NCBI GenBank assembly: GCA_030390025.1
Contig: CM059432.1
Coordinates: 82,834,001-82,898,000 of the forward strand
Origin: Squalus acanthias
Lineage: Eukaryota
DNA length: 64,000 bases
Direction of reading: 5' to 3'
Shown here: one piece after another, positions 12,111 through 61,937 of the stretch
Layout: every line of letters starts with the position of its first letter
Numbering within the stretch: position 1 is the stretch's first letter
Program-made: the position numbers and the translations under genes
The notes under the pieces: generated by a model
Databases searched by the model: none
Seen by the model: only the letters and a program-made list of their open reading frames with translations
What the model was told of the DNA's origin: nothing

Positions 12111-12926
12111 TGGGTGTGTGCGCCTCAGAGAAAAAGAGCCGCAGTTCTGGCATGAGTGGGCTGACTAGATCTGTAACCACTGCAAGGATCAAAATGAGGT
12201 CTTTCTATCTGCTTATGCAACAGGTAGGACAGAGTTGGTGTTTTTATTTTTTCTGTCAACTTGCAACAATAGCTGGAGGACAAGTTATTATGGTGTAATA
12301 GGTGGGGAATCTACAGAGTTGAGAATGTTTAACAGGTAGCCTTGGTCTGTGGAGCCAGAACTTGATAATTGTTAACCGTTGTAATTAAAAATTGAGACAG
12401 AAAAATCATACCTCCTGGATGCTGAGCCATGACTCCACAGAGCAGAACCATAGTATAAAAAGATAATACACTAATTTTTGCTGACATCAACAAACAACCT
12501 ACCTGAAGTCTATTCCCATTTGGTTTTATCAAAAACATAAAAACAATTTCAAATTCCATTGAGATACCTTCCAAACCAAATTCTTTATTCTTACAGCATT
12601 CACTCAGCTTATCTGTAAGTTTTTTTTTTACACACAGCAAAACCTTTCAAAAAGAGGCTTCATTTCTAAATACTGTTGGAGGAAAACATGGCTGAAAGCC
12701 TGCACACTGGATTAAATAGCAGAAAAGTCAGCAACCACTGAGGATCAAAAACAAAAGAGCAAAGATGTGATCATTCTGCAAAATGACGGTAGAAATACAT
12801 TCATCGGACAAGGTTCGAAGCCGATGTCAATCTGTTGTGAGGACAGACTTAAGTCACACTTATGGTGAATGCAATTAATGGACAAAGCAGCTTCAGTAGG
12901 CAAGCATGTTGCTACTAAGGAGCCTG

Positions 12927-13099
12927 TCACTCTGTTAGCAACTCTTGTAACAAACAATTTCTCTAAGACTGGCTAAGAGTTCAATTGGCTGCTGCACTTT
13001 TCTTGGCTTGATCTGGTGGCGCTCGTTTGTTGGTATAATTGCTACCACCTAAATGTTGACCTTGCACTGAACATCAGCAAACACATGGACCTGCTGGAC
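12927..13099 (-). pseudogene. Decayed SRC-1a-type alternative C-terminal coding segment inside the NCOA2 3'UTR
   Basis: VQQVHVFADVQCKVNI, then a 1-nt frameshift, then GGSNYTNK...*...*RNCLLQELLTE*. Compare NCOA1 VQQVQVFADVQCTVNLVGGDPYLNQ...KSLLQQLLTE*. Confidence 0.85.
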
Positions 13100-13134
13100 C
13101 GAGTTGAAGACAGGAGGAATAGCAATCCTGAGGG

Positions 13135-13146
13135 TCAGCAATATTT
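13135..13146 (-). CDS. NCOA2: NCOA2 terminal coding exon portion (KYC*)
   Basis: ttttccattttgcag|AAA TAT TGC TGA. KYC is the known NCOA2/NCOA3 C-terminus, and phase 0 matches the previous exon. Confidence 0.9.
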   Translation of the reverse strand, partial: KYC

Positions 13147-14409
13147 CTGCAAAATGGAAAAGCATGAAATAGGTATTTAATTAACAGAAAAGCGCACACA
13201 ATGTAACATCACAATATTGACATTATCACTATCACAAATATTGAAATCCGCAGAATTAGGAACCTTAAATGACTTTGGAATATGAGCAATTCCTTGCCCA
13301 TTCGTTCTCTTCCCTCTACATCTCTCACAACATGCTTGTTTTTAAAAACACTGCTTTTTAAAAACAGCTTATGTACTCCCAGGATTCTGATGTAATAAGT
13401 TTAAAAATTAAATCATCCAAAATGAACACACACTGATATTAAAACTATTTCATAATACAATCATCTGCAGAATGTTCTTGATATTTTTAGTTTACACTCC
13501 TTGCCGATTATACTGATTATGTTTTATAGAAGAATTCCAATTCCAAAGTGCAAGAGTCAGCAGTAGCAGTGCAGGAATTAATGTCAGTACTGCATACACA
13601 ATGTCGCATGGTTTAAATGTTTTAAAATATTGCCTTTTAATGAGACAGCATAGAAGTTTTGAAAACAAGGAATGTGTTTAGACTTTCTGCTTTTACTATT
13701 CACCATTAGTTAATAAATCTATTCCCTGTACTAATGGAAACACACTCAATTATTTATTGCAACTGGTTATTGTAGCACTCTTGTAATAAATCTTTCTTGG
13801 TGAAGTAGCAAAAAACTTTTAAAGTTCACATCAGCAACAACTAACATCCAAAAGCCAGCTTTGGTGCTAAATATTTTATGTTGTTTAAGAGCTGGAAAAA
13901 ATAATTTACACAGGACTAACAAAGAAACAGCCAACACAATAAAGATAGACCACTTTACATCTTTAGAATGACTAAATTACAAACATCTACAAAACTCAAT
14001 TCGTCCAACACTACTTTCAATAAGAGATTTTCATTTCAAAGATTTAAAATTGTATGTTAAATTAGATTTCCATTGGAAACTTACTTTTCTCTACCTCCTT
14101 ATGCCCAAGTTTATCCAGTATCATATTTTCAATAGAAAGGGGTTACTTAATCTGTGGCCAGAATGCTTCATTTTTTTCTAACTTATCTCCTGATCTGGTG
14201 CATTTCTTCTTTTTGTCGGGTACTCAAGACAGCAGGGATCGACAGTAAGGCACCAGTTAATCTCAATGTCTAAAACAAAATAGTCATTAGCAAGTTATCT
14301 AAAATAACTTGCATATTTTAATCTTTCCTTCCATAAACTAAGAACTTCACATGGTTACTGTAACAAGTACACCTTAACGCTTAATAAACATGGTATAGAG
14401 TGACTAATG

Positions 14410-14730
14410 CAGGAGTGGAATAGCACAGTATCCTTTCATCTCTGGGACCTGGCTTCAAATCCAACCTAGACTGATGGGATAAGTATCATCTGTCTCTGGC
14501 GGCTGCAAGAGTCTTAACACAAAATAGAGGGCAATCTAAACTCAGTTCCTCTTGGGATGGAGCCCAAAGCACAAATTGGCAATTTCAGTTATAGCATAAG
14601 GATGGTAGGTATGGGAAATAGTAAAGGCCTTACTGGTTGGAATTGAGGTACATTGTTGAGGTAAGAGAGTGTGGGGCAGTGGAGGGGGGGTTACTCTGTA
14701 TCTGGCTGTACTATAGCTAATCTGATGCAA
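14410..14730 (+). mobile_element. LF-SINE-like element
   Basis: Ordered blocks cctttcatctctgggacctggcttcaaatccaacc, tctggcggctg, cagttcct, cacaaattggca, ttgaggtacattg and agtgtggggcag resemble the recalled LF-SINE consensus. Confidence 0.55.
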
Positions 14731-14988
14731 ACACTAACTGCAAAAAAAAAGTTCCATTACTCATCACTGATGCCTCCTTTCCTTACTCCATTTTCTCCCC
14801 ATCTCTCCTGAAGATGCTGACTCTCTAGGGTACAGATCCACAGAATCCACCTATTCAAATGGCTATTCTTCATGTCTGAGCTTAGATATTGAATGTTGTC
14901 AGGTTATTCAATCGTGGAAGCCACCATCATGAATAATTTACATTATTTTAATATACTATGTGGAATTTATTTTATGTAAAAATATATT

Positions 14989-15260
14989 GGGCCGTAATTT
15001 GCAGCCCCTATGGGTGTGTACAAGGTGTGTACGTGCCCGTAGGGGCCGCGCAAGTTCCGGGTTTAGGCATGCGATGCGCATGCGCGAAAACCAGGAACTT
15101 GCGATGTCAAGAATTCTCTTGACAGATCATCCGCATCCCCAGGAGAAGGGACTCCGCGGGCGACTTCTGCCCAGCGAATGCCCTTGAAATTCTTACGCTT
15201 GGTAAAAGCAAGGCGTTACGCCTGGTACTGCCGAGTACCAAGTAATACTTTCCTCTCAGT
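14989..15260 (+). mobile_element. Hairpin-rich non-autonomous element end (probably Harbinger-derived)
   Basis: Starts gggccgtaattt, like the Harbinger TIRs in this window. CpG-rich, with several consecutive inverted repeats. Confidence 0.55.
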
Positions 15261-16694
15261 GGAAGAAACAATACATAGCAGATACACTGCGACATACGGA
15301 GACCAGTTAAAGTCCAAAATGGATGATGCGTGCAAGTGCCCTATCCACAAACCAAATAAGATAAGGTAAATCTACCAGTAACTCATACAGGTCACTAGCT
15401 CTTGGTGTTAAGAGGAGGTCAAGTGAAGTAACTGTTCTGAGGGGCAATAGAGGTTATGTGGAGTCCACAGATTCTTGATGCCTTCTTCCAGCTGTGAATA
15501 TTTAACCAGTGGTCCTCTGAGCCTGTATAATTCTTTGTCTGGCCAGGAGTAGAGAACACTTTTATGCTGGGCTGGATCCCAAAGTTCCTCTGCACAGGAA
15601 AAACAAGCTTCAACATTCTTGTACTGAACCATCACCTTCCAGAAAATTAGTCTGCTTCATTAGAATTAGAAAATTAGAAGACAGTGGAGAATTTTATGAC
15701 ACCTGTTTTTGCTGGGAATCATCTGTGGCGTTTGATTTACATTTTTTACTCAGGAGCTTCTATTGCCAAGCTGTTCCAATGGAAATTGACCAGGGTCAGT
15801 CTGATTAGTGCAGAACACAGTGAAACAATAATCAGGATGGTGTCTGAAATAAACACCACAATCACTTTGTAAAAAGAAAAACAAGCTAACTCAAAACTTC
15901 AAAAAGGAACTTTCTCTCCAGAGTTCTAAGACTATAGAAGAGCATTAACAAAGAATTCAAACAATTTTGAACTTTATCTGGTTCAGAAAACAGATCTGCT
16001 GATGACAGAAGATCTAACGAAAAGCTAAAGGTGCGGGCCAAAACAAAACTTTAGATATAGCTGTGGATAGGGCACAGCGACCAATTGACTGTTCAGGACA
16101 TGATTTTCTTAAACTGCAGGATCCCAAGTGACTATGCTCAGTAGGATGACAGAAACTGCATGTAGATTTTGAATAAATGTAAGAATTTATATTTTAAGTA
16201 ATTACTTCTAGATAATTCACAATGTGGTATAATAGTTTTTCAGCATTTGCACACTGTTGCATGATGTTATACAAATTTATTTTGATATAGCAAGTTGTTT
16301 AAAGGACTATAACCTGTGTGATCAGTAAGATGGCTACAATCTGTGTTCACTACCTGTTTCTGGACACTAGATGGTGACGTGCATTAGGGCCGAGAATTAA
16401 TTGTGCAGTTGTAAAACTAATTACCTGTGTAGTCCAGCCATGTCACTTAACAGAATTTGCATCTAAACCATTCATCCACTTCATAATAAACTCAAAATAC
16501 TCACTGGAGAACTCAATGGGAACCCAACAGTCATAATCTACAACAAATCAGTCAGGAATGTGCCACCTTGATGATGCTCATGTTTCTACAAACCCTACAT
16601 GGACAAACTTTCGCAAAATAGTTTATAAATACCAATCGATCTTCCGTGACATTGCTCATGGTGAGTTGGAGGATACACTTTTTATCTCCTTTGT

Positions 16695-17975
16695 AAAAAT
16701 TCATTCCTGGGATGTGAGCGTCGCTGGCAAGGCCAGCATTTATTGCCCTCAAGAAGGTGGTGGTGAGCCGCCTTCCTGAACCACTGCAGTCCGTGTGGTG
16801 ACGGTACTCTCTCAGTGCTGTTAGGAAGGGAATTCCAGGATTTTGACCCAGTGACGATATGTTTCCAAGTCAGGATGGTGTGTGACTTGGAGAGGAACTT
16901 GGAGGTGGTGACGTTCCCATGCGCCTGCTGCCCTTGTTCTTCTAGGTGGAAGAGGTTACAGGTTTGGGACGTGCTGTCGAAGAAGCCATGGCGAGTTGCT
17001 GCAGTGCATCTTGTAGATGGTACACACTGCAGCCACAGTGCGCTGGTGGTGGAGGGAGTGAACGTTTAAGGTGGTGGATGGGGTGCCAATCAAGCGGGCT
17101 GCTTTGTCCTGAATGGTGTCGAGTTTCTTGAGTGTTGTTGGAGCTGCACTCATCCAGGCAAGTGGAGAGTATTCCATCATACTCCTTACTTGTGCCTTGT
17201 AGATGGTGGAAAGGCTTTGGGGAGTGAAGTGGTGAGACACTCGCTGCAGAATACCCAGCCTCGGACCTGCTCTTGTAGCCACAGTATTTATGTGGGCTGG
17301 TCCAGTTAAGTTTCTGGTCAATGGTGACCCCCAGGATGTTGATATTGGGGCATCCGGCAATGGTTACGCCGTTGAATGTCAAGGGGCGATGGTTAGACTC
17401 TCGCTTGTTAGAGATAGTCATTGCCTGGCACTTAAGTGGCAAGTAACATTCGTGTCGCACATCAGCCCAAGCCTGAATGTTGTCCAGGTCTTGCTGAATG
17501 CGGGCATGGACTGCTTCATTATCTGAGGAGTTGCAAATGGCACTGAACACTGTGCAGTCATCAGCGAACATCCCCACTTCTGACCTTATGATGGAGGGAA
17601 GGTCATTGATGAAGCAGCTGAAGATGGTTGGGCCTAGGACACTGCCCTGAGGAACACCTGCAGCGATGTCCTGGGGCTGAGATGATTGACCTCCAACAAC
17701 CACAACCACCTTCCTTTGTGCTACGTATGACTCCAGCCAGTGGAGTTTTCCCTGATTTCCACTGACTTCAATTTTACTAGGGCTCCTTGATGCCACACTC
17801 GGTTAAATGCTGCCTTGATATGAAGGGCAGTCACTCTCGCCTCACATCTGGAATTCAGCTCTTTTGTCCATGTTTGGACCAAGGCTGTAATGAGGTCTGG
17901 AGCCGAGTGGTCGTGGCGGAACCCAAACTGAGCATTGGTAAGCAGGTTATTGCTGAGTAAGTGCTGCTTGATAGC
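16695..17975 (-). mobile_element. CR1-clade LINE 3' portion (RT domain)
   Basis: GVPQGSVLGPTIFSCFINDLP, MFADD, YKAQVRSMMEYSPLAW. Confidence 0.92.
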
Positions 17976-19879
17976 ACCAATCTAATGTACAATATCACAA
18001 GGGTTATTGATTAACAGTGATTGAGTAAGTTAAATTGAGTTTTCATTACGGAATATTGAGTGTTAATGGTATTTTCAGGCTCAATCTGCATGACTGTGCA
18101 CATTTGCACATGATGTGTTGTTTTCTAAAGTGGTGATGAGTGAGAGTAATGGAGAATGTAACATTTTGCTGGTATATTTCAGGGTATGTTGGGATAAAGG
18201 GAATGATAGTTAAAAATATATTAATGTAGAATAAATGGCAGAGAAAATGTAGAAATTCTAATGAAATTAATTTAATTAAGTGAAAACATGAAATTATATA
18301 TTGAAGGTTTTTATATAACTGCAGAGGTTTATGAAGAAAGGGAATGGGAGTTAAAATAAATTTAGAATATATATACCTTGGTGTCCTGAAAACAAACCCT
18401 AACTTACCCCTTGCTTTACCACAATTCAGGTCCTGAGCTGCACATACACACTGTACGCTGCCATGCTGATATCACAAATTTGATGGCCTAGACCTGATTT
18501 TTGGTCGGAAAAGAAATAAAGACTGTTCAATTTAGATTTTTTAAGGGGAACTGGATCTTCTTTTTGGTACTACTGCAAGGACTGTATTCTTTACGCTGCA
18601 GCAAATTCCAGCCTTTCATTCAAAGTTGTGTATGGAGCAAGTACAGCAGTGAATTGGCAAAGTTACAACACTGCTAGTCCCCTTAAGACTGAGGTCATCA
18701 ATTAAAGACCGACTCAGGTCACATACCAAGGCATTGTTTAATACAAGCAAGATTGTAACTGTTCCTTGTGTAGAATCTCTCAATTTTTAATATTCCACTA
18801 TCATAGTAGCAGGTAAGTGGTTCGAGCCACAATAAACATAGGTTCTTCAGCTTCACTTTTAAATTAAAAAAAATCTAGAGGGTTAAGTGAGACTTTGGTG
18901 GTGAGTCCCATAAAAGGGGTGTCCATAAACGGTGTAATTAATTGTGACTTCTCATTTAGCTTAACTATACCTTTTTTTTTTCATGATTTTCTCTGGATTT
19001 GCCCAGGATTTTTCAGACCCAATTATTTCTCATTGATTTTACTCCTGTTTTTAATAGTAAAATTAAAACCGGAAAGCCCCAATTTTTAAAATGGCAATAA
19101 AAACAGGCTTTTAAAATCCTTACAGATACTGCATTTCAATTTTCAAGCACTAGCATCTTTGATCTTGTAGAGCATAAAATTCAGCAAAAATCTGATTGTA
19201 CATCAGTAATGGCAGGGAAACTTAATTCTTGCAATGTTCAGTGTATTTCAACAACTGCACATTCATTATAATTAAAAGTGAGAGGAAACAATATCCTTGT
19301 AGTCACTAGTCATTAGTAAATCTGCTGTCAGTAGCCCTGAAGAAAATTCTGATTAACAAGCAGTCGGCAGAACTGATGGTATAGGCGAGTTTGATTTCTT
19401 CACCTATGACCAGCCTAATGGCCTGCATTGAATGTTGGATGCCTTACGTACTATTTACAGAGATGTTAGCTGATCTGAAAGGGATCTTGATACAAAAAAA
19501 AAGCGAATCAGGTTGGGAAAGACAATAGAATGATTTTTTTTTGTGGTCTCACATGTTTATATAAAACCACTATGTATGTAACTGATCCAATAAACATCAA
19601 GCATTTTTGTCTCCAGACTCGAGGGGAAATGGGATGGAAACTGTATAAGGTTATGACAATTCATGTTGGCATCTAAGTCCTTAGTATTGATTACATTAAT
19701 CTTCCAGAAGGTTACCTCAATGACCTTATTTTAAACTCATACTGGGCTTGCAGTAGTGTGTCTGGTTATGCTGACTAACTTGAAAAAGTATAAAAGCTTT
19801 TGTATCTTCAATTGAAAACATGCCTGCAAAGAAGAGCATAGTATGCCTGCAAAGAAGAGCATTGTATATTCTTTTAACG

Positions 19880-20260
19880 AAACGTCCATCAACCTCCTCG
19901 GCTGCTAACTCAAACTGAATAAGGAAATATGGGGCCCATGGCATCCTGCTCAACCCGGGAGTTCAGCTTCTTCCCCACATCCTGTCCATTACCAAAACAC
20001 ATTAAACCATGTCATCACCGACATACTGATCACCCGGTCATGTCCAAACTCCAGTAACACCCCATGCCCCAGTGTGTTGATTTCAAAATTCTTGCCCTTT
20101 TTTTTTTTAAATCTCAATGGCCAAACCCCATCATGCCTTAGGGATTTCCTTCTGCTTCATGTCCCTGCACACATGTTCCACTCTTAACGCTGGGACTTCT
20201 CCTTATCCCTCGCTCCCTCCACTCCACCACCAATGGTTTCTCAGTCAGCCATGATATCAG
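19880..20260 (+). mobile_element. Degenerate L2 LINE 3' fragment
   Basis: Pyrimidine-rich sequence with gatttcaaaattcttg and ctccaccaccaatgg blocks, similar to the L2 at 49410. Confidence 0.45.
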
Positions 20261-20389
20261 AGACATTATTTGTTTTAAGAAATTCAATAGAAAAAAAGGT
20301 GCCATCTTCAAATAGTAATTATTGTCCTGTCTTGCTAATTTTCTCTCTCCACTTTTGAAAAGGTAAAGTTCCACAGATGATGGCATCTT

Positions 20390-20676
20390 CCAAGTGGTCA
20401 TTTATCATGCATGAGCCATTACAATGAATGTCAGTAAGTTATTTATCCAGGGGTGGGGTAGGAGGGGGAGAGAGAGAAACATAGTTAAGCCCAATTCTGC
20501 CCTCACCTGCACACTTCCAGCAGAGGTTATTAAATATTGATCAGGAATAAGAGCCTTAGCTGACATTCTCCTTCCTAACCTGGGGCACCGAGGCTAATTA
20601 TAGCATTTGACCAGAGACTGAACTGGAGACCTTCCTGATCAGCTACTCATTTGATAAATTCATTGACCCACCAGGT
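20390..20676 (-). mobile_element. tRNA-derived SINE (family B)
   Basis: Reverse complement of family B blocks (gccctcacc, ccagcagagg, gaccttcctg). Confidence 0.6.
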
Positions 20677-20801
20677 AAACTTGAAATGGGCAACAGCATA
20701 CCTCCAATAACTACCATAAAGGAGGGGACAGACCCTATACTTTCTTTGGGTTCACAACTGAAATTCCCCAAATTTTGGTATTACACATATAGTACAATAT
20801 A

Positions 20802-21226
20802 CAGGAAACTTTCGTTTATCCGGCATCGACGGGACCGGCGTGGTGCCGGTTTATCGAAAGTACCGGATAACAGAGAGTTATATCTACCGAGGCTATTTTT
20901 AACAAAGAGACTCCAAGCAGCACAGGAGAATCTACTCCTGCTACTGCAATGTTTCGGACTTGCGACAGCGCCAGGAGGCCGAGTAGTGGCACTTTTGAAA
21001 AGTACCCCTACTGACTAAATCGGCGTTCTCGGACTCTGACTCGGACTCGGGATCGGCAACATTGCCGGTTATTTGAGAGGATTTTTCGGAGCACTCGGCG
21101 TTCGCGAAGACTCGACTGCGACTCGGCAACATTGCCGGTTATTTGAGAGGAGTTTTCGGAGGATGATTTTTGCCGGTTAAGCGAGAATTCCGGATATTTG
21201 GGTGCCGGATAAACAAAAGTTTCCTG
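20802..21226. mobile_element. Tc1/mariner (pogo/Tigger-like) MITE
   Basis: 24-bp TIRs caggaaactttcgtttatccggca / tgccggataaacaaaagtttcctg (1 mismatch), with TA on both sides. Confidence 0.9.
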
Positions 21227-21424
21227 TATTAGGTACAGGAATGAAGAAAAGTACAATTTAATTAAATGTTTCTTAAGTTGTGTGATTGATTTAATCAATC
21301 AGGAGGATATTGGGAGTTCATAGCTGTACCGTGAGGCAATAGTACATGAAAAGCTTTGCCTGACTTTTCTGGTCCCAATTCAAAGTTACTGGTTGAAGTA
21401 CAGCAGTTGGCCTCAAAAGTATCA

Positions 21425-21820
21425 CCTTGGCTCAGTGATAGCACTTTCACCTTGGAGTCAAAGTTTTGGTTCCAGCCCCACAATGGACTTGAGCACATAA
21501 TCTCGGCCAAGGGAGTGCTGCATTGTTTGAGGTGCCGTCTTTTGGTTGAGACGTTAAACTGAGACTCCACCTGCCTTTTCAAGATCCCATAGTACTTTTC
21601 AAAGAGGAGCTGGGGAGTTTTCCCGGTGTCCTGGCCAACATTTTACCAGCAACCAACACCACCAAAAACAGGTAAACTGGTTTGCTGTTTGTGGGCCCCT
21701 GCTGTGTGCAAACTGGCTGCTGGATTTGCCGACATAACAGCGACTACACTTTAAAAGTACTTCTTTGGCTGTAAATTGTTTTGGGATGTCCGAAGAATAT
21801 GAAAGGCACGATAAATACGT
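21425..21820 (+). mobile_element. DeuSINE (SacSINE1-like), near full length
   Basis: A-box tggctcagtgatag, Deu domain and L2-type tail. Homologous to 505-931. Confidence 0.85.
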
Positions 21821-22598
21821 GTTTTTAAGTGACTGAAGCAGTAAAATGTATGTGTAGTATTATAAATATGCATTTCTGACCATTAGATTTCCTCTTAATA
21901 GAAAAATCATAAATGTCTTCTTTATACATGTATTTACAGATTTGCTATAAACAGTTAAGATCTTCGGCCAGATCAGTACAGGCAAATCAAAGAAATAGGA
22001 ACATGGTGGATAACGGATAAAAACTTACAGCCAAAGATTTATTGCTGATCCATTAAGCTTCCAAGTCATAAAATTATCAATTCCAAACTCTAAATGTCCT
22101 AGACCCAGAATTTAGATACAATGAAATTTTAGCCCCTGAATGCTAAATGGAGTATCGTATATATTTAGTAAAGGATGGGATGATTTTCCATTTAGCCAGT
22201 AGAAAGCAGCATATTCTCTGACAATACAATTACATGAATTACAAAAATCTATGTGTTAGCTGCTTTCACAACACAACCTTGAAAGATCAGCCAGCACACT
22301 ACGGCAGATACCTGTTAATGCTCGAGAGTAGTATCTTCTTTCAGTGAAGTCTGATTGCAATAGGAAGTATTCTACTTTTATTATTATTGGTCCCTATCCT
22401 ATCCAAATACTTGAAATGCTTTCCAATACAAAGTCTTTTAGTAAAGTATTTTCATAATCTTAAAATTCCATGATCTTTAGTCTCTAGCCTTTGGTAAAAT
22501 GCATTGGTTGAAGCCTTAGCTGTTGGTCTAACAATTTGCTGTCAACACAACAGTGCTCTGTTTTAATTACATTTAGAAAAAAATTGCTCATCTCTTAC

Positions 22599-22797
22599 CT
22601 GTTCAGCACCCATAGAGGACAATCCTGATGTAGGCACAGAGGTCATTGAGGTCATGCTAATCTGCCCTGACATCTGATTCATGTTGCTCATACCGGCGGT
22701 ATTGGTTGCCATAGAAACACTGATATTCATATTGTTGCTGTACATGCTGGTGTTTGCCTGTTGTCCAAACTGTGGTGGGGACGGCTGTGAAAACATG
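22599..22797 (-). CDS. NCOA2: NCOA2 coding exon (AD2 region)
   Basis: [67 protein letters not shown]. Boundaries acacag| and |gtaaga. 199 nt, phase 2 to 0. Confidence 0.97.
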
Positions 22798-22989
22798 CTG
22801 TGTTGCAAGAGGAGAATAAACAAAAATCACATATTAGATTAAGTATATTTCCTCAAAAACATTTTACTACGTGGGTCTTGTCTGTGAGATGTTATGAACC
22901 GTACAAAAGTTCAGGCACAATTATTTTGCAGTAGACTACATGGGGCATTAGCTGCCAAAATTTTGAGTCACAATAGTCTTGTTTACATT

Positions 22990-28364: not shown

Positions 28365-31300
28365 GGGTTGAATTTTAACAAAAAGCTCCAAAATTGACCG
28401 CATCAGGAAGCCGGATTCAACCCGCCGGCTTCCGCCTTTAATTCGAGCGCATTAGCTGTGAGCGAGACCCTTTCGGGAGAGGCGGGTTACCTATTTAAAC
28501 CAATTAAGAGCTAGTTAAGAAGTTATTAAGAGCCTTTTTTTAACCTGTGGTTTGACCTTTTACTGGGTGTCTACAGGATTCCCGGGCTTGCTGAACCTCA
28601 CCAGTGAAAGTAAGGCGAGAGCAGAGCGGCAATTGAGGGAGCTGAACTTAAATACTCAGGCCTCACACCTGCTTCCTTGCCCAAGGGAAAGGCTTTTGCT
28701 GACACCACTTGTTCTAAGAGTTTGCAGGTGATTTCCACTACACTGGCGGTCACTCTCGCTACGCTGGAGGATTGTACCGGTGATCTCCACTTTACTTCTG
28801 TAATATATCAAATCAGCATGGGTGCCACTTATGCTGTTTCACCTTGGACCTCAGATGAGGACCAAGATGAGCACCAGCAACACCACCACCAGCAGGAGCA
28901 GCAGCGGCCTTCTCCTCACCAACCTGCCGCTCCACAGGAGGGGATGAGCACAGGGGTGCACCTCACAGGAGGCAATACCCCCAACACAGGGTATGTAGGC
29001 AGAGGATCAGCTTCCTGGACATGACTGAACACCAGTGCCTCAGGAGGCTCAGGCTATCGCGTCAGGTTGTGGCAGACATTTGTAGCCTGCTGGAAGACGA
29101 CCTGCTGCCAAGTGGATCTGGTGGACACGCGTTACCAGTGGCTGTCAGTGACTACCGCCCTCAACTTCTTCACCTTAGGCTCCTTCCAGGGATCTGCAGG
29201 AGATAGTTGCAGGATTTCACAGTCTACGCAGCAGCGAGGATTGGAGCTGCTGGAAGAGCAAGGCACAGAGCCTCTTTGAAGGAGGAGGAGGAGGAACCTG
29301 ATGGCACCAGCAGCAGCGCACACTGCTGCCCGAGGTGGCCTCATAATAGCCCCATTTAGTTGGGTTGCACTAGTGCATCCATATGGCACCCAGATGCTGA
29401 ACCAACTCCCCCGCCCCCCCACCGCCACCCCACAGTACTCCTACATTGACCAAACCATTTTCGTCACACACACCCATTGTTCGCAGTTAAGTCATGTCTT
29501 ACCATTCATTACAACTGACAAGACCACTTGCCAGGCAGCAGGCAAAAATGGGCAAGACGGGAAAGTGGTGCAAAGAAATAATTGTGTGTTCAAATAACAA
29601 TCTTCACGGTGCAACATTGCCTAACACACCCTTGTGCATCTAGAATTCTTTCATCTTCCTCTTCCTACCACTTCTACGTTGTGCAACCCTCGCAGCTTCA
29701 GCAGAGGTAGAGGCAGGATGCTCACTTCCCCGCTCTGACTACTTAGATGCTTTCGGCCGATGTTCTCTGGGTTTTGGAGCCCATGAGGCAAAGACTGCTC
29801 CTCCTGTACCGCGGCGTTCTCGGCCATCGGGAGAGGGGGCAGCATGTAGGGCTGTAACTGGGGGGAGCGGGGACAACGGGGGAGAAGTGGGAGCGCTTTG
29901 AGCAGTGTCCCCACTTCCATGTTCCCTTTCACCATCATCCTTCTCATGGCCCACCCACACTTCCCTGCTAGCAAGGAGCTGGAGAACACTTTGCTGCACA
30001 TTAGTGAGGCGATGAACGGCCAAGTCTAGGTTTCTATACATCCTAGTTAAGGTGGCATTCAGAGTCTGCAAGCTGTTGGTGAGGGCTAGCATGCACTCGT
30101 TTGAATGCCGTGTTTGATGATCCATGCAGGTGGCCACCCTTTTCATGGATGAATACATCATAGCCAGACTCCTCCAGAATCATCCGCTTTGTTGACTGCC
30201 CCAGAGGTTCAGCATCTTCGTCCAGCTAAGCAGAGCTTGGAGTGTCCTGTGCCCTCTGACGAGGACTCTCCACTGCTGTCCCTGTCTGCAACATCTGCTC
30301 CTGCGATGTGAGACACCAGATGACACTACTACTTTCTGATTTACTGATCCCACCAACGTGTGTGTATCTGCACTGGTGCTTGGTGTGCATAGATCCTGTG
30401 CCGGTGCAACCTCAGAGTCCGCAACCTCCTCTGGGGAGTCGTCTTCCTCCTCTGGCTGGACTGTCTGGGCGACACTTGATGGGCCTGTGGGAGAGTAAAG
30501 ACATGAATTAGAACTGTTATGATAAGAATGTATTAAGTGAACATTATGCACATGGTTATATTTCACTGGATGCTAACATGAAGTCAACATGAGTGACTGT
30601 TGTATGCCATGTGGCTGTATGATATTTAATTCTGTCACCAGGTAGCTGGGAGTTCCCCCTCTCTCCATCTCCGACCGCCAGCAACTCGGCAACTCCGCTG
30701 ATCCCCAGCACCTCCTCCTCTGCTGCAGTCAGTGGTGTCATGACTGGAAGGCCACCCCCGGTTCTCTGCCTCTCACGGTTGTTTTGTGCTCTCCTCTCCT
30801 GCAAGGAGGGAAACACGAGACCTTTGAGTGAGTGTCGTGGAATGAGTGGAAGGGATGGACGGGCTACATCTGTAGAAGGTGACTATGAGGGAGAGGCGTG
30901 ACATTGCATTAAGATGAGGATGAGTGTCAGTGGTGGTTAGTCAGATGGGGATGTGAGTAAGTGCATAGACAGGGAGGGATGGGTGCACCTGCCAGGTAGT
31001 TTGGTGTGAGGGGTGATGTGCAGGAGTAGGCTTGGGAAGGCAGAGTGAGGGGGTTGGGGTGACACACACATCAGGATGCAGTGGAATGTGGCATTGTACT
31101 CACCTTTCCTGACCTCATGAGGTCATTAAAGCATTTCCTGCACTGGATCCATGAACTGGCTATCACACTCCTGCCGCTATCTCCAGCCATGCCTTCTTGG
31201 TCTCGACAGCTGGCCTCTTCCTCCTGTCAGCAGGGAATAGGACCTCCCTGCGGGCCCCGACTCCTTGGAGCAGGAGTTCCAGGGAGGCATCACTGAATCA

Positions 31301-31659
31301 AGGGGCAGCTTTTGGTGCTGAGCCTGCATATTTTTATTCTCCAGCAAGATAAATTTCCTTACCAACAAGAAATTCACTATCAACACAATCCACTCTCTTT
31401 CCCAACAGCCTCTCCTAAACCTCCACCAACCTTCAACGGTAATCTGTGCATTACTCCTTTAAATACCTGAGCTGAATTGGAGCCATGTGACACGTCATCA
31501 CGCCCGCTCCCGTTAACTGGTCAGGAAACCCGGAAGTCCGATTCAATTGCAGTGGCTTTGTTAAAAAGCCACTGCAAAACGCACCTCTCCAACGTCCGGG
31601 TTCCTAAGCGACCCAGGGGTCCCCTGCTGCCAGCGCGTTGCAAATGTAAAAATTCTGGC
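28365..31659. mobile_element. PIF/Harbinger DNA transposon, internally deleted
   Basis: Imperfect TIRs gggttgaatttt / aaaattctggcc with taa/tga flanks. + strand HARBI1-like N-terminus ([15 protein letters not shown]...[19 protein letters not shown]). Convergent spliced Myb/SANT ORF on - (ERRAQNNRERQRTGGG). Confidence 0.88.
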
Positions 31660-32424
31660 CTGAATGTCAAAAATAGACAAGGGGGTAGTTCTACAAGCAA
31701 GAGTAAATTTAAGCTCTTTATAGAGTTGACAGCACAGGAAGAAACCATTTGGCCCATCATGTCTGTGCTGGTGCTAGCACTTCAACTGGAGCCGTCTACT
31801 CTAAACCCATTTATCTGCCCTTCCCCATATTTTTACATGATTCCTTTTCCACTCATCCAATTCCCTAATAAATTATGCTACTGTCAACGTCTTAATAGTC
31901 ACTTGTAGTAAAGCATTCCACATTCTAATAACCCTCTTCTTACAAATAAATATGAACCAATTACTGTGAGGTTGGGATCAATATCTTGATCCTGGACCAA
32001 CAATCCTTGTAAATAACTTTTGAACAAGTAAAATTAGAATAAAGTAATTTTAACGTAGCTGAATCTATGGAAAATCTGATCAAGGTGCAGCATAAGTGAG
32101 CTGGCAAAAAATGGGTTACTACTGTCACTTTTTCAAAATTTTAAGGCTTATGCTCTCACAGAACTACAATGCCATTAGCCAGAACTATGTTAGTCAACCA
32201 GTGCATGCAAGTTAGTACTGAAAATCCACATTCACAAAAAAGGGAAGGCAGGTCAGGTTAAATAAGACAAGGTAAAGACATTACAAGCAACAGCTCCACA
32301 CCCAATCCAAAGCCAAAACCAATTCGCTCAATCATTTCCAACACACAAAGAAAAATAATACAATTTTTACAATAAATAGTTTTGCCATTCTAATAGTTAA
32401 CAGCACTCAGAGGAAAGGCAGTAC

Positions 32425-32857
32425 CTGAGCTGGGAAACTGGAAGGCATTGTGCTGCATTTGGGGACTCATTACAGGCCCAAACTGTCCTCCCACATTTCC
32501 TATTATTCCCTGGTTAGCCAGATTCATCTGGGAGCCATGCAAGGAGCTGTGAGAGAGGAGCTGTGACCCAGGATTTGGGGACACTGGGGAGAAAGGACTG
32601 GTGGAAGGTGGTGGGGAAGTAAGCCCAGTACCATAGTTTGGAGGGTATGGGAACTGTTGTGGTGATGCCTGAGGAATCCGAGGAGTGCTCATGGCACCTG
32701 CCATACTGCCAGAGGCTGCCATATTTGGTGGGATGTTCAAACCCTGCTGCCGCATCATCATGGTTCTCTGTTGCACCTGCATCAACTGTCTTTGACGCAG
32801 ATGCTGATTCAAAAGCTCACGCTGTCTCTGGGCCAGCATCTGTGCATTAATAGGTCC
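32425..32857 (-). CDS. NCOA2: NCOA2 coding exon with two in-frame donors (short form ends at 32632, long form at 32425)
   Basis: [24 protein letters not shown]...[10 protein letters not shown] followed by 69 further open codons. Acceptor cttcag|. Both donors read g|gtactg in phase 1. Confidence 0.93.
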
Positions 32858-33739
32858 CTGAAGAACAAATGGAAAATATACCTATAGCATTAACAACATT
32901 CAAATATTTAGTAACCTTTATTTGAACAGTTTCTAAGGGGCTGTGTGTTTCACTGAATATTTACATAGACAAACTTTGCACATCTTTACATCCCTTGTTA
33001 CCTAATGTAGGCCTGTGTGGCCCTGAAAACTAAAGCACAGTTCATTATATTGGTCCTAATAAACAAGAGTGCCCGCAGTAATTATCCACATCAATTCCCT
33101 TATGAATTTCCTGCACTTTTACTTTACAAGATAAATTTATAAAACAAGTGTTTTTCAGTACCTTTTATTTTCCAAAATTACACATAGGTTTTATTCTAAT
33201 AACATTCACGAACAGTTGATTGGCTTTTCCAATTAAAATTCTGCTTTGCGCCTGGCCAACCCGTCAGATTGAGTTATTTTGAGGAATACTATGTTTCTGT
33301 ATATTACAATGGTATCATTTTTTCCCCATTATGCTAAATTAAGTTCATTGCAGCCCCGACTTGTTTCAGAAAAAATGGATATGAATTATTGTTCATCAAT
33401 TTACTGCTCAATTGTTTTTCATTTATTAATCTATGTTGTAAATTGTATCACTACATAGTCAAGTTTCACATCAATATCAGAGACCATTATCCCATCTGGC
33501 ATCATTTCATCCGAATTGGTTTTTTTAAACAGGTAAATTATTTGACTATTGGAAGTACAACTTTCACAGACCTCTCTCTGATATCTACAACTGAAATATA
33601 GATTAGAAATGTAAATGTATGATTCGAAGTAGTTGTTTTAAAATGAGTGCAACTTATAAATTTCCTCTCCCCAAATTTCTTGCTTCCTCACCTGAAAGTG
33701 CCAACTATGACTTAATAAGCCCTTTGTTTAAGGAGGCAT

Positions 33740-36021: not shown

Positions 36022-36829
36022 CTGTGAAAACAAGGCAAAACTACAATAAAGCAAGATGTGCTGAATGGTCTTTTCTCATCCTTGCTATTTTTTTTTTTTT
36101 AATATTCATAAATCTGCCATAATGGGCAAATATTTATCAAGCAGATACAAAAATGGTAGTGGTGGAAATTTGACAGAAAATATGAAACTAAACTTGCAAG
36201 CTAAACACAAGAAAAATCTATACTACCTAGTTATATTTAAACAAATAGTTTCTCAAAGAGCTCCAAAAGTATTGTGGCATTCACAATGCAAAAAGCTCTT
36301 CATACAGGATTGCATATAGGTGTAATGATTGTCTTAATTAGCATAGATTGTTACCAACATTAAAAAGCACATTGGCGTAGAAATTCGGGGGTTTAGCACC
36401 GGCCGTTAAGACCCATTTTGATGAAAAATGGCGGCCGACGACTCGCTTCTGCCTGCTTCCGGTTGCTCCCGCGGCGGCTGCCATTTTTGGCAGGTCGGCA
36501 GCACTGCCGTTGCCAGCGCTCACTAGAGAAATGGAAATGAGGCAGATCGTGACGTCAATGAGTGTGCAACGCTCATTTGACGCATGTTCTGCCATTTTCG
36601 ACGTCGCCGCTCCATTTGTCGCGCTCTCTTAACCACAACTGGCTGACCATTTAAAGGGATCAACAACAACTTGCAGCCGACACGGTTTCTCAGTTTGACT
36701 GGCTCTGTCTAAGTATCTGCAACTCTGGTAGCTTTCTAAACTTGTTTAAAGTTGCTAAGGTCACAGAATGTTGGTGCAAGCGGAGAACACCTTCATTCTC
36801 TCATTTGCTCAGTCACGGGGGCTCTACTT

Positions 36830-37898
36830 GCACTCCGCCTCGCGCTCGAGTATCGCTGGGAGAGGGAGCGGAGGCAGCGAAGAGAAGATGCTCGCAGAAG
36901 GAGGAGGGGCAGGAGGGCTCTCAACAGGAGACCTTACCCACCTCGGGTCTTCCGAGAGCACTTCTTATCCCCACTTAAGCCAGGAGCAGTGTATTAGGAG
37001 GCTCCGCTTCACCAAGGTGGTGGTCACGGAACTCTGCCACCTCCTGCAACCAGACCTGCAGCCTCAGACCAGGATGACCACAACTCTCCCAGTGGCCTGC
37101 CAAGGTCACCGCGGCCCTCAATTTCTTCGCCACCGAATCCTTCCAGTCTGCAGCAGGTGACATAGCTAACATCTCCCAGTTCACCGTCCATCACTGCATC
37201 CAGGAGGTCACAGAGGCTCTCTACTCCAGGAGAAGGGAATCCATTGTCTTCTCCCTGAACAGAGAGAAGCAGGACAATGCGCATATGGCTTTGCCAGGAT
37301 AGCGGACTTCCCCATGGTGCAGGGTGCCATCGACTGCACCCACGTGGCTTTGTGGGCACCGCATACCAATCCTGAGATGTTCCGTAACCACAAAGGCTAC
37401 CACTCACTTAATGTGCAGTTGTTGTGAGACCACACCCAGCGTATCATGATGGTGAATGCCCGCAATCCTGGCAGCAATCATGATGCCATCATCCTGCGCC
37501 AGTCCGGTATGCCAGCAATCTTCCAGCCATCACCACGTCAAACCCGAGGGTGGCTGCTCGGAGACAAGAGCTATCTGCTCTGTATCTGGCTGATGACTCT
37601 TCTCAGCAACCCACCACTCGTGGCCAGCAGTCATATAATGACAGCCATGCTGCCACCAGGACCATCATCGTGCAGACCATTGGGGTGCCTTGACCGCTCG
37701 GGAGGAGCCCTCTAGTACTCGCCGGAGCGGGTGTCCCAATTCGTGGTGATCTGCTGCATGCTCCACAACTTGGCCATCATGAGGGCGCAGCCCTGGCCAC
37801 AAGGGACTGCGGGACTGGAGGAGGGAGGAGGGACGAGGGGGCAGGCAGCAAATCCCCGTTCCGGACAGGCTGTCCGTGAACGCCTCCGATTTCAGTGA
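36830..37898 (+). pseudogene. Harbinger DDE transposase (HARBI1-like), disrupted
   Basis: GFARIADFPMVQGAIDCTHVAL, FRNHKGYHSLNVQLL*DH, PGSNHDAIIL, GWLLGDKSY, CLDRSGGAL*YSPERV...CCMLHNLAI, with stops and frameshifts. Confidence 0.9.
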
Positions 37899-38059
37899 AT
37901 GAAACCCCAGATCCCCATTGGTCACCACTTCCCCATCATACCATCCCTGTCATGGAAAACACAGCGTCCTCCTGGGCACAAAGCTAAAATGAGACACACC
38001 ACAAAACACACATTCCAAACAAAAATCCTGAATGCAATCAAAATTACAATATCAACTAT

Positions 38060-39463
38060 TCACCCGTGTGCATTCCCTTAGTGTCTATCTTTCGTGTGCT
38101 TTTACCTACTCTAGTGCTCCCCCAGTGGTTGCAGCATGGCTGGTGGAAGGCTGCCGACTTTCAGTGGGGGAGACTGCAGATGCACAACTACCTCGACCCA
38201 GCTGCAGACTGTACCACCTCGGCATGGGCGGCAGCAGTCTGGACTGGCTGGCTGATAGGCAGTGGCAAAGGCGGAGTGGCAGTGGTGGGAGCAGCAATGC
38301 TGTCATCCTGAGAGTTTCTTGCTCCACAGACCCACTGCCACTCCCCCGGGGCAGCACCTCAGCATTCCTAGCAATCTGTTGGAGGATAGATTGCTGCGAC
38401 ACCCTGCAAGCCCATTTCAACACTCGTAAATCCAGCGATGATGGCAGCAAGCTGAGCCTTCAGGAGAGCAGTCTGCGCACCACTGCAGCACCGAAACATT
38501 GGGTCACTTCCGCTTGTACTGCAATGGAAGCCGTGACATCGCTCATCACACGCAGCATCATGTCTGGGTCCACAAGGTCTCTCCTGGAATTGTCCATCAT
38601 GTCCATCCTGGAAATCATGGGCTCCAAGCTCTGTGCCAAGCCCCGTCCAATGTTGGAGCCGGACTCCTCCATGCTCCTTGACACTGACAAGAGGCTCTCT
38701 GACAGGCTTGCCATTGCACCTAGCATTTCAGAGTGCATGACCATCACCTTTCTTCTGAAGGCCGCTCCATCGAGGTCATCATCTGAGTCCTGTGGAGCAG
38801 AACTCATGTGCAAACTCGCCCTCCGGGGAGCTGGCACCCGAGCTACCCTTTCCCCCGGTCTGGTCGCAGTCCACTTGTCACCAGTGCCTCACCATGTGCA
38901 GATCCCATCTCTATACTACCCTCTACATTCCGTGCAGTGCCGTTTTCTGTGCTGGTGTCTGAGTGTCAAGTGCAGTGCCGGTGTCTCCTCTTCTTTTTGT
39001 GCCTGCCTTAGCTGAACAGCTGCCAGTGTATGCAAGGTGTGAGATGTGGGTGTGAGTGTCGCAGCAGTGGCAACGTTGTGAAGTGAAGCCATGATTGTAA
39101 GGTATGAGTGGTGACAGCTAGAGATTGTTGGTAGGTGAGTGATGGGGGTGTGGTGCATTGAGCAGTGAGAGGATCTTGTGGTGCAGATGCTGGGATATGG
39201 CATTTGCTGAAGCCTTCACTCACCTTGACCTGCCGTGTGAGGACATTAAGCTTTTTTCAGCCCTGGATCCAGGTCCTTGGAACCACACTGGTGACCATGA
39301 CTGAGTCAGCTATCTTATCTCTCAGCCTTGTGAAAATGGCCTTGGATGGTTCCTTGTCACCCTGTGAGTACAGGACAGTCCGCCTTCGTTGCACGGCCAG
39401 GACCAAGGCCTCCAGTGCAGCATCTGAAAACCTTCTTGCTCGCTCCCTTGGTTGCTGAGCCAT
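38060..39463 (-). pseudogene. Harbinger Myb/SANT-like DNA-binding gene, disrupted
   Basis: MAQQPRERARRFSDAALEALVLAVQRRRTVLY...RTWIQG*KKLNVL, then donor aag|gtgagt and a downstream coiled-coil-like segment. Confidence 0.8.
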
Positions 39464-40777
39464 GGCTTGCTCTACAATAACAATGAGGTGCTTCTGCAAC
39501 AAAGCACCTCCCCTTTAAATAGTGCAGCGAGCCTGTGCCAAACATTATTGGCCATCAGACTGCACTTGATATTGGGCCACCCTGTTGAGCGCTAAGCCAA
39601 TCAGCAGCGCGTTCAGCGCTCCAATCATTATAATGAGCAGGCAGCACAAATTTTGCATGCTGCCTGCACCACTTTGAACAGGCGCAGGCAAACAGCGCTG
39701 GCCCGTGACACCGCCCGTTTTTGGGCCATATCCAATTTCTAGGCCATTATTTCTTATTGCAGTTGGCCAAGTTTTCCACAGTGCCATATATTATTGCTAA
39801 TGTGGGAATGGGTCAGAACTCAGTTTATCATCAAGTGAACAGAAATTCTAATTCTGCATCTTTCACACAAGCATTAAACAGACATTCTTCGCAGATCTGA
39901 ACTTAAAGCAGCTGAGGGGCATAAAGATTTAAAAAAAAAATTTGGGTAGTCAATCAACAATAACATTCCCAATCATGTCATTTCAAACCATCACAATTTT
40001 AATATTTCCAATTTTACCCCAGTATTTAAAAGCCTTCTCCAATGTAAAATAGAATGAAATCCTCTTCCTAATATACACAAACTTGGTTTAACAATATCTA
40101 TGTTTCTTCAGTGAATTATAATGTCCCATATATGCCATTGCTCAATAACCTACCATCTATTTTAATCAACACTTTACAGATTACTGCACATCTATGACCA
40201 TTTATACAATAATTTGAACCCTATAAAGGCAGTTTGTTCAGTAGCCAGTGCAGTCTTCATCATGTAACCATAATTTAAACAGTTTACAAATTCTTAATTC
40301 CACTTGCTTTGAGATTATAAATAATTTAAAAATGAAGTCAATTCAGATACTGATGGAACCCATGATATTATACTGTCCTCAGCTAAATGAATTGTTCAGT
40401 CAGTTAGGTGCAACAGAATGTTACATGACACTATATAGCTAACTTCACATTCCAAATACCAAACCAGATATGTAACACATCTTTTAAAAAAATGAAAAGT
40501 AGATTTCATGTAGGAATTTGCAACTCCTAAATCTTACTCATTTAAAATTGTTGAGTATTCATAAAATGTTAAAAATCATGTTTTTAAACCACTTTCGTCA
40601 GCTTTTAATTATTAATCACGTGTGTCAAACTGATCATTTAAACCAATGATTTATAATCACAGTATAAGTTATATTTAAATATTTTTTTCTAAATCCATAA
40701 CAATGGAAAATGACACCTAACAATGATTAATGCTTTTTAACATTCTGTGGGCCCAAACCCTGAACAGAAAGTACACT

Positions 40778-53390: not shown

Positions 53391-56160
53391 CCACATCCTG
53401 CCTCAATGTCAAGGGCAGTCACCTCTAGAATTCAGCTCTTGTCATGTTTAGACCAAGGCTGTAATCAGGTTGGGAGAAGAGTGGTCCTGGCGGAACCCAA
53501 ACTGAGCATCGATGAGCAAGTTATTGCTGAATAAGAGCTCCTTGATAGCACTGTTAAAGACTCCTTCCAGCACTTTGCTGATGATTTAAGAGTAAACTGA
53601 TGGGGCGGTAATTGGCCGGGTTGGATTTGTCCTGCTTTTTGTAGACAGGACATACCTGGGCAATCTTCCACATTGTCAGGAAGATTCGAGTCCTTTGGAT
53701 GTACTGGAACAGCTTAGCTAGGGGCATAGCTAGTCCTGGAGCACAGATCTTCAACAGTACAGCCAGGATGCTGTCGGGGCCCATAGCCTTTGCTGTGTCC
53801 AGTGCATTCAGCTGTTTTTTGATGTCACATGGAGTGAATTAAATTGGCTTAAGACTGGCATCTACGATGGTGGGGACCTCAGAAGGAGGCCGAGATGGAT
53901 CATCCACTTGATATTTCTGGTTGAAGATAGTTGCAAATGCTTCAGCCTTGTCTTTTACACTCACATGCTGGGCTCCACCATCATTGAGGAAGATCATGGA
54001 GCCTCCTCCTCCCCCCATTAACTTAAATTGTCCATCACCATTCACGACTGGATGTGGCAGGGTTGCAGAGCTTTGATCTGATCAGTTGATTGTGGGGTCG
54101 CTTAGCTCTGTCTAAGCATGCTGCTTTTGTGGTTTAACATGCATGTAGTCCTCTGTTGTAGCTTCACAAGGTTGGCACCTCATTTTCAGGTATGTCTGGT
54201 GCTGCTCCCGGCATGCTCTTCTACACTCCTCGTTGAACCAGGATTAAATTTATGGAGTAGTGAGGGATATGCCAGGCCATGAGGTTACAGATTGCGGTGG
54301 TATACAATTCTGCTGCTGCTGCTGCTGATGGCCCACAGTGCCTCATGGATGTCCAGTTTTTGAGCTGCTAGATCTGTACTTAGAGTCATAGAGTTATACA
54401 GCACAGAAAGAGGCCCTTCGGCCCATCGTGTCCGCGCCGGCCATCAAGCCCTGTCTATTCTAATCCCATTTTCCAGCACTTGGTCCGTAGCCTTGTATGC
54501 TATGGCGTTTCAAGTGCTCATCTAAATGCTTCTTGAATGTTGTGAGGGTTCCTGCCTCTACCACCCTTTCAGGCAGTGAGTTCCAGATTCCAACCACCCT
54601 CTGGGTGAAAAAGTTTTTCCTCAAATCCCCTCTAAACCTCCTGCCCTTACCTTGAAACTATGCCCCCTGGTTATTGACCCCTCTACTAAGGGGAAAAGTT
54701 CCTTTCTATCTATGCCCCTCATAATTTTGTACACCCCAGTCAGGTCCCCCCTCAGCCTTCTCTGCTCCAAGGAAAACAACTCCAGCCTGTCCAGTCTCTC
54801 CTCATAGCTGAAGCGCTCAAGCCCAGGTAACATCCTAGTGAATCTCCTCTGCACCCTCTCCAATGCAATCACATCCTTCCTATAGTGTGGCGACCAGAAC
54901 TGCACACAGTATTCCAGCTGTGGCCTAACTAGCGTTTTGTACAGCTCCATCATAACCTCCCTGCTCTTATATTCTATGCCTCGGCTAATGATGGCAAGTA
55001 TCCCATATGCCTTTTTAACCACCTTATCTACCTGCCCTGCTGCCTTCAGGGATCTATGTACATGCACACCAAGGTCCCTCTGATCCGCTGTCCTAGGGTC
55101 CTACCATTCATTGTGTATTCCCTTGCCTTGTTAGTCCTCCCAAAATGTATCACCTCACACTTTTCAGGGTTAAATTCCATTTGCCACTGTTCTGCTCATC
55201 TGACCAACCAGTCTATATCGTCCTGTAGCCTGGGGCTTCCCTCCTCGCTATTTACCACTCCACCAATTTTCGTGTCATCTGTGAACTTACTGATCATACC
55301 GCCTACATTCATATCTAAATCATTAATGTACACTACAAACAGCAAGGGACCCAGCACCGATCCCTGAGGTACACCACTGGACACAGGCTTCCAGTCACAA
55401 AAACAACCTTCGACCATCACCCTCTGCCGCCTGCCACTAAGTCAATTTTGGATCCAATGTGCCAAATTGCCCTGGATCCCATGGGCTCTTACCTTTTCCA
55501 TGACTACCTTAAATTTCACCGAATTATGGTCACCGTCACCAAAATGCTCTCCTACTGACACTTCTACCACTTGCCCGGCTACATTCCCTAGAATTAGGTC
55601 CAGTACCACCCCCTCTCTTGTAGGACTTTCTACATGCTGGCTCAAAAAGCTCTCCTGGATGCACTTTAAGAATTCTGCCCCCTTTAAGCCTTTCACACTC
55701 TGACTATCCCAGTTAATATTGGGGAAGTTGAAATCCCCTACTATTATTACCCTATTATTTCTACACTTCTGAGATTTTCCTACATATCTGTTCCTCTATC
55801 TCCCCCTGACTGTTTGATCTATCCCACTTAACATGGTGGTAATGCCACAGGACACGACTGAAGGTATCCTCAGTGTGAAGAACTATTTGGCCTCCACAAT
55901 GATTGCATGGTGGTAACACCCATCAATGCGGTCATGGGCAGATGCATATGTGACAGGTAGATTGTTAAGGACGAGGTCAAGTAGGTTCTCAGTCTGGCAG
56001 CTACGAACTTCAGGATTCAGCCAGCTTGTTCAGTGGTGGTATTACTGTGTCACTCTTGCTGATGGACATGGAAGTTCTCCACCCAGAGTACATTCTGTGT
56101 TGTTGCTACCCTAAGTGGCATTCAATATGGATAAGCACTGATTCATCAGCTAAGGGAGAG
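53390..56160 (-). mobile_element. CR1-clade LINE (second family), split by a nested CR1 insertion
   Basis: GPDSILAVLLKICAPGLAMPLAKLFQ...KQDKSNPANYRPISLL in 53390-54380. The element resumes at ~55817. Confidence 0.85.
54385..55815 (-). mobile_element. CR1 LINE (nested, internally deleted)
   Basis: SGVPQGSVLGPLLFVVYINDLD and [19 protein letters not shown]. Endonuclease fragment GDFNFPNINW/PTREGVVLDLIL. catagagt tail. Confidence 0.92.
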
Positions 56161-60272: not shown

Positions 60273-60477
60273 TAGGGCTACACTTTCAAAAATAGCAGAG
60301 GAATAAAATTGGTCAACTAGGCAACCCTATTAGGTGGTGATAGCAACTATTCAGATGACAAATGGAGTATCTTTAAACCAATCCATGCAAAAGGAAGCCA
60401 CATATGCCCCCGGCAAAGGGCACGTGGTCAAACCAAGCTAAGGTGGCTAACTGGTGATGTGCAAGAAAAAGGATAGC

Positions 60478-61920: not shown

Positions 61921-61937
61921 AAGAACTAATCAGACTT

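Follow-up and report, generated by a model that had tools for sequence, protein, structure and literature searches.

The terminal LXXLL box of the p160 coactivators is, to our knowledge, usually treated as a speciality of NCOA1. A locus in Squalus acanthias calls this into question. In the window (the whole 64,000-nt stretch of DNA that was analysed), the minus strand carries, just past the K-Y-C stop of NCOA2, a broken reading frame that resembles the SRC-1a tail of NCOA1. Is this segment a true homologue of the SRC-1a terminal exon, how and when did it cease to be coding, and is any part of it still in use?

The NCOA2 tail segment and its homology to the SRC-1a exon

Judged by sequence identity, the gene in the window is the p160 coactivator gene NCOA2 of a shark, because its exons match shark NCOA2 best (about 0.83–0.87 against the proteins), ray NCOA2 less well (0.75–0.82) and NCOA1 least (0.44–0.50), all values taking in intronic overhang; the exon at 32420–32860 has 97% identity to shark NCOA2. 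The window is located on contig C8 of the 3.71-Gb genome, and the other p160 genes lie elsewhere, NCOA1 on C680 and a third p160, ending in KYC, on C11. The NCOA2 introns also hold open reading frames (16500–17800, 28600–31500, 36300–39500, 54600–55800 and 60400–62700) that we take to resemble LINE reverse transcriptases or Harbinger-like transposon genes.

The features of the last exon are collected in Table 1. Its proximal and distal acceptors lie 47 nt apart, and read-through of the KYC stop was ruled out as a route into the tail, since it leads into the wrong frame. The short penultimate exon (VNxP..RGGNL...) of chimaera and bony vertebrates had no match in NCOA2 of this shark (window 13147–22598) and is also absent from the shark and ray NCOA2 isoforms among those listed. 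NCOA1 of this genome is without the equivalent short penultimate exon seen in amphibians (L002 1370–1500); its short last intron contains a 25-nt look-alike of the tail-exon start, reading HVQVFTDV (L002 1461–1485), which may be a short tandem duplication or an additional AG.

Table 1. Features at the 3' end of NCOA2 in the window
Feature	Position	Strand	Evidence
Penultimate NCOA2 coding exon, ending ...MGAEQ; phase-0 GT donor at 22598	22599–22799	-	Spliced join to the KYC exon readable in 3/4 runs; consensus of the fourth run mixed
Proximal 3' splice site, in use: pyrimidine tract and CAG (13149–13147)	13147–13168	-	Contigs of 4/4 runs end here; 16/20 pyrimidines
Live terminal codons K-Y-C-stop	13135–13146	-	58/58 shark isoforms among those listed end in KYC
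Spacer of 35 nt between KYC stop and tail, last two bases CG	13134–13100	-	Sequence
Remains of the distal 3' splice site: putative branch-point-like CTGAC overlapping the KYC stop, pyrimidine tract (16/20), probable AG decayed to CG at 13101–13100	13100–13138	-	Sequence and comparison of organisms
First 16 codons of the SRC-1a-type tail and frameshift-created TAG, reading VQQVHVFADVQCKVNI then stop	13049–13099	-	Untranslated here; protein terminus by annotation in five batoid species
Site of 1-nt deletion (two bases opposite an NCOA1 codon)	13050–13051	-	No indel in 4/4 runs
Dead second part of the tail, in the other frame; TGA 12983–12981, TAG 12965–12963, original stop 12929–12927	12927–13049	-	Alignment to NCOA1
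Fossil NR box LLQELLTE, 7/8 residues as in NCOA1; LLQELL at 12953–12936	12930–12953	-	LXXLL pattern present; decaying in organisms C and D

The original prediction, that a homologue of the SRC-1a tail begins 35 nt after the KYC stop, depended on a significant alignment to the NCOA1 tail. Such an alignment was obtained. A tblastn search of the window with the NCOA1 tail P0176 (caecilian isoform X1) gave two collinear HSPs with a sum E of 6.9e-6, one at 13099–13052 with 13/16 identical residues and one at 13052–12930 with 34% identity over 41, while the next-best match in the window was no better than E 1.5. At the DNA level, the fossil aligned to the intact NCOA1 tail of the same genome with a score of 3543, reached by 0/2000 shuffles (maximum 1797); the score of the part after the frameshift, taken alone, was reached by 2/2000. 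A HMMER scan with the shark NCOA1 tail over 1.84 billion representatives gave 24 hits, and a frameshift-aware profile was built, without NCOA2 sequence, from 18 intact tails (17 of the 24 representatives plus P0176; the repetitive, 3267-aa P0318 was left out as spurious). The fossil aligned to this profile end to end, with a score of 95 against a shuffle maximum of 31.8 and with a single 1-nt deletion immediately after V-N-I. True homology of the segment to the terminal SRC-1a exon of NCOA1 is thus confirmed.

The likeness extends to sequence, length (the C-terminal 56 residues of NCOA1), order, position after a phase-0 intron and terminal stop, and the similarity is collinear over the whole tail. 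In the same genome, however, the NCOA1 tail is intact behind an AG, with contigs splicing into it in two of the four runs described below, whereas the NCOA2 segment is frameshifted, contains two stops, has no open frame from acceptor to LXXLL, shows CG in the window where an AG should directly precede the first Val codon, and is untranslated. The KYC codons and spacer were also considered as a homologue of the 3' end of the NCOA1 intron, a possibility that was rejected because 1744/2000 shuffles scored as high. A DNA search of the genome with the segment matched only the window itself. With the NCOA1 tail as protein query, the genome yielded the NCOA1 locus and two chance matches; this search missed the remnant in NCOA2 and the one in NCOA3 described below, and is thus insensitive.

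Lesions and sequence change in four organisms

Four runs of 24 were compared with the window, one each from organisms B, C, D and E; these are RNA by guess, and their contigs join exons. The contigs end at the proximal acceptor in all four runs, reach the penultimate exon in the three that have a readable loose end, and carry the tail as UTR in all four. No indel at 13051 and no change at either internal stop was seen in any of them. Because 4/4 runs have the frameshift and both stops in spliced contigs, these are not assembly errors, and the predicted lesions passed this check on reads via contigs. That the exon is intact and live, its frameshift and stops being mistakes of the assembly, might be suggested by the short T run that adjoins the deletion, but this reading is refuted by the unchanged lesion sites in four organisms and is opposed by ray proteins that stop at the same residue. 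A weak search with the post-frameshift frame, X included, as query points the same way, giving two candidates, none scored, and no intact protein. We assign this reading practically no probability. The tail in this shark is 3'UTR of the KYC mRNA and is unable to yield an LXXLL peptide, because it is frameshifted, carries two stops and lacks the AG.

Both stops had been proposed to be single C>T changes. This fits the internal TAG, which aligns with a CAG in NCOA1, but not demonstrably the TGA, which falls in a variable linker. The proposal that the CG at 13101–13100 is a decayed splice AG fared better: these positions read AG in organism D, AA in E, and CG in B, C and the window, which supports decay of an acceptor at this site and indicates that the distal AG was lost at least twice, by two different changes. 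D and E are probably sharks, because ray-specific residues are absent from both. No NCOA2 contig entered at 13099, 13093 or 13090 in the four runs, though contigs drop rare splice forms. In a separate observation, record 2 of run X13, a low-depth contig of 213 nt, aligns to window 13071–13149 with six differences and has the distal AG intact; its upstream sequence is intron-like but unlike the intron of the window, and the contig may come from another organism or from unspliced RNA.

The original prediction had taken the legibility of the segment as a sign of recent loss or of continuing constraint. Across the four organisms, 12/122 sites are variable in 13048–12927 compared with 5/271 in the downstream UTR (Fisher p = 7e-4), so that variable sites are about five times denser in the LXXLL half, and continuing constraint on this half is not supported. 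Its changes comprise six that alter amino acids, including one nonsense change, and five that are synonymous. The nonsense change, in organism C, lies inside the last codon of the box, and organism D has lost the terminal stop. The synonymous share of codon changes in this dead half (5/11) is a little, though not clearly, above the neutral expectation (p 0.07–0.20). With disabling lesions fixed across species and neutral-like change, 13049–12927 is a vestigial (pseudo) exon. Recent loss is likewise not supported, in view both of the lesions common to the four runs and of a truncation point common with ray isoforms, which is discussed below.

The first 51 nt behave differently, with two variable sites, both of them synonymous (2/2, chance 0.04–0.07; few changes). 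A purely neutral shark copy would not be expected to show synonymous changes only in these 16 codons and to be nearer to NCOA1 than the ray copy is. This scarcity of change could instead mean that the stretch was kept by RNA-level constraint, as a UTR element, and not by a coding past combined with a slow clock. We consider that unlikely, given the fivefold higher variability of the part after the frameshift relative to the downstream UTR and the clustering of differences from NCOA1 at synonymous positions. For 24 conserved codons, pS between NCOA2 and NCOA1 is 0.90 and pN is 0.12, although all of the synonymous changes could lie on the NCOA1 branch. This disparity suggests that the NCOA2 tail stayed coding well after duplication, and it also counts against a recent copy of NCOA1.

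Downstream of the fossil, the UTR at 12656–12926 is itself strongly conserved (five variable sites in 271 nt in the four organisms), suggesting a regulatory UTR element.

Ancestry of the tail

The HMMER scan found a full tail, ending in LLQQLLTE, in a p160 fragment of the hagfish Eptatretus burgeri that is not assignable to a paralogue. The 16-residue motif that begins the tail is nearly invariant in the 18 intact tails, from hagfish to birds. Ten of the 24 hits had names that were looked up, and none of these was NCOA2 or NCOA3. No invertebrate p160 was among the 24, and the available text of the Taiman paper (PMC4214675) does not settle a pre-vertebrate origin. One further tail, that of the NCOA1-like C-terminal fragment P0320 (Logan protein), ends in ...QRNSLLQQLLME and has R-N before the box, as in the NCOA2 fossil.

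The third p160, on C11, is NCOA3 by exclusion. Its last exon (L011 from about 6155 downwards, minus strand, G000:C11:14437654) starts with K-Y-C-stop, with CTCAGGA just past the stop, as in NCOA2. A 12-codon ungapped match to the profile lies 63 nt past the stop, compared with 65 nt in NCOA2. Its score of 31.8 was reached by 0/300 shuffles and 0/722 genomic windows (best genomic control 30.7), and at the laxest gap setting 1/232 controls scored higher; the profile test was chosen after the alignment had been seen. When the NCOA3 UTR was aligned as plain DNA, the score lacked significance, being equalled by 117/2000 shuffles against NCOA2 and by 1177/2000 against NCOA1. With NCOA2 the match has in common V-H-V, I and a Y-T-x-K...A-P-P stretch, and it is continuous where NCOA2 has its deletion. 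There is thus marginal evidence that NCOA3 of this shark retains a fainter remnant of the tail at a matching offset. The likeness of this remnant to NCOA2 fits the tree in the consulted part of PMC10515491, in which the first genome duplication separated NCOA1 from NCOA2/3.

The full hagfish tail, the NCOA1 tail and the two remnants together make the SRC-1a tail look ancestral in vertebrate p160 genes, whole only in NCOA1 among the jawed-vertebrate proteins examined. A very unlikely alternative is that the segment came later into the NCOA2 UTR of elasmobranchs, as an insertion or gene-conversion tract from NCOA1. It would account for the lack of the tail in every bony-vertebrate NCOA2 protein examined, and the NCOA3 remnant that speaks for ancestry is weak. 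Against such a transfer, the segment is separated from the homologous ...EQ exon by a phase-0 intron and shows acceptor anatomy of its own, its synonymous sites are near saturation relative to NCOA1 (pS as above), the NCOA3 remnant lies at the same offset with residues common with NCOA2 rather than NCOA1, and the hagfish has the tail.

The claim that the ancestral p160 gene already had an alternative LXXLL tail can be kept only in part. Ancestry of the tail is favoured by the hagfish protein, the NCOA3 remnant and the tree in the portion of PMC10515491 consulted, but its use as an alternative end in the ancestor is conjectural: the KYC end is seen in NCOA2 and NCOA3, and SRC-1e is described in the relevant section of PMC3551673 as arising in mouse through cassette exon 22, which is separate and carries a stop, whereas NCOA2 has two acceptors within one exon.

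Predicted stub isoforms in rays and skates and the probable order of loss

Use of the first 16 codons in rays, which the original prediction missed, appears in database proteins. None of the 120 best homologues supported a frog or zebrafish NCOA2 ending in an LXXLL tail, which was rejected, but two of the 120, from Amblyraja and Narcine, end in ...MGAEQ-VQKVHVLADVQCKVNI, the product of splicing to the distal acceptor, with a stop exactly where the shark frame stops. The chondrichthyan NCOA2 isoforms among those listed (up to 15 per cluster; RefSeq predictions, protein level only) were tallied. This stub ends 4/4 isoforms in Amblyraja, 2/2 in Rhinoraja, 3/4 in Pristis, 3/3 in Mobula hypostoma and 14/15 in Narcine (e.g. 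XP_032875228.1, XP_069777358.1 and XP_051878804.1), and thus occurs in five of eight ray and skate species among the isoforms listed, in two skates as the only end. It was not found among the isoforms listed for M. birostris (0/4), Hypanus (0/6), Hemitrygon (0/5), nine shark genera (0/58) or Callorhinchus (0/4), and no bony-vertebrate NCOA2 protein examined had either tail or stub. The 16 codons and stop are the same as in this shark, annotated as protein in rays and UTR in the shark, with 14/16 identical residues in Amblyraja. In several rays, splicing of the first 16 codons into the mRNA thus appears to persist.

The identical protein stop position suggests that rays and sharks carry the same deletion. 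The skate, electric ray and sawfish lines are dated as splitting about 209–212 My ago, and the elasmobranch ancestor is placed at 265–349 My, in the consulted part of bioRxiv 2025.02.26.637739, which also refers to a very low mutation rate in elasmobranchs. If the shared stop reflects one event, the frameshift would predate the elasmobranch ancestor and be at least about 265 My old.

We judge it probable that the segment is a vestigial terminal exon that was inherited from the ancestral p160 gene and killed in steps. The ancestral vertebrate p160, as reconstructed from hagfish, NCOA1 and both remnants, would have ended in a 55-residue tail with a C-terminal LXXLL box. The ancestor of NCOA2 and NCOA3 would then have gained the acceptor 47 nt upstream, giving the short KYC end and making the tail either UTR or an alternative end. 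The NCOA3 copy would have decayed early after the second duplication, while the NCOA2 copy stayed longer under coding selection. The 1-nt deletion after V-N-I, observed in the window and in four runs and probably older than the split of sharks and rays, would have severed the LXXLL box. Several rays, according to database annotation, would still use the distal acceptor for a 16-residue stub without the box, and shark lineages would have lost the distal AG on the two or more occasions seen above. The two acceptors may compete, and the CTGAC over the KYC stop could, by its pattern, be the distal branch point. The fossil would still be legible because it was long conserved as coding and because elasmobranch DNA changes slowly. 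The tail thus looks like a dead exon in this shark and a still-spliced stub, of putative function, in rays. There appears to be a small chance that the downstream frame is still open in NCOA2 of some chimaera or ray.

Alternatively, the stub might serve elasmobranch NCOA2 as a functional second C-terminus under selection, providing a short binding motif distinct from the LXXLL box. Sharks would then perhaps still produce it at a low level, through the AG of organism D or through two in-frame CAGs just downstream. Its annotation across what we take to be four batoid orders, its status as the only end among the isoforms listed in two skates, the near-invariance of the motif in intact tails and the synonymous nature of both changes among organisms B to E all favour this. 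On the other hand, rays have L in place of an aromatic residue that is F or Y in 18/18 intact tails, and three further changes, which leaves the untranslated shark copy nearer to NCOA1 than the annotated ray copy. The stub is moreover not among the isoforms listed in three of eight batoid species or in any shark, the distal AG was lost twice, and the contigs showed no entry into the tail, which for contigs cannot prove absence. We therefore regard a functional stub as possible but doubtful, and retain stepwise decay of an inherited exon as the preferred reading.

Vestigial exons and the partitioning of splice forms between ohnologues after genome duplication form a known kind of event, and as in that general case an ancestral element is kept by one paralogue while it decays in its sisters. 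Unlike the general case, three stages of decay (intact, readable and faint) are seen in one genome, with a partial live form in a sister lineage. The NCOA2 remnant and the ray stub are thus a new case, adding evolutionary detail and not a new mechanism; no report of either was found in a literature search confined mostly to journals outside subscription. The NCOA1 system is alike in that one gene has two ends, SRC-1a and SRC-1e, with and without the tail, chosen by splicing, as stated in the accessible text of PMC13199265. The two isoforms are described as differing in activity (PMC13199265, PMC6469829, text seen in part), and their ratio as altering glucocorticoid responses in brain (PMC6469829, same part). 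The NCOA1 box is a genuine receptor-binding peptide, which binds steroid-receptor ligand-binding domains (MR fusion chains 5l7e and 5mwp; the consulted part of PMC10297449 lists GR structure 3BQD for it), and binding is known for the NCOA1 peptide only.

The evidence turns the usual polarity round, in that the tail appears to be the ancestral state, from which NCOA2 and NCOA3 departed at different times. The 16 residues ahead of the box may form a motif of their own, one that the ray NCOA2 isoforms isolate. More tentatively still, all three vertebrate p160 genes may have begun with an SRC-1a tail of two separable elements, of which rays and skates would keep the first 16 residues as a regulated, selected NCOA2 C-terminus without the box, possibly the main form in skates. 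If the ray stub is indeed selected, nature would have carried out a deletion experiment here, with the implication that human SRC-1a has an interaction site so far unrecognised.
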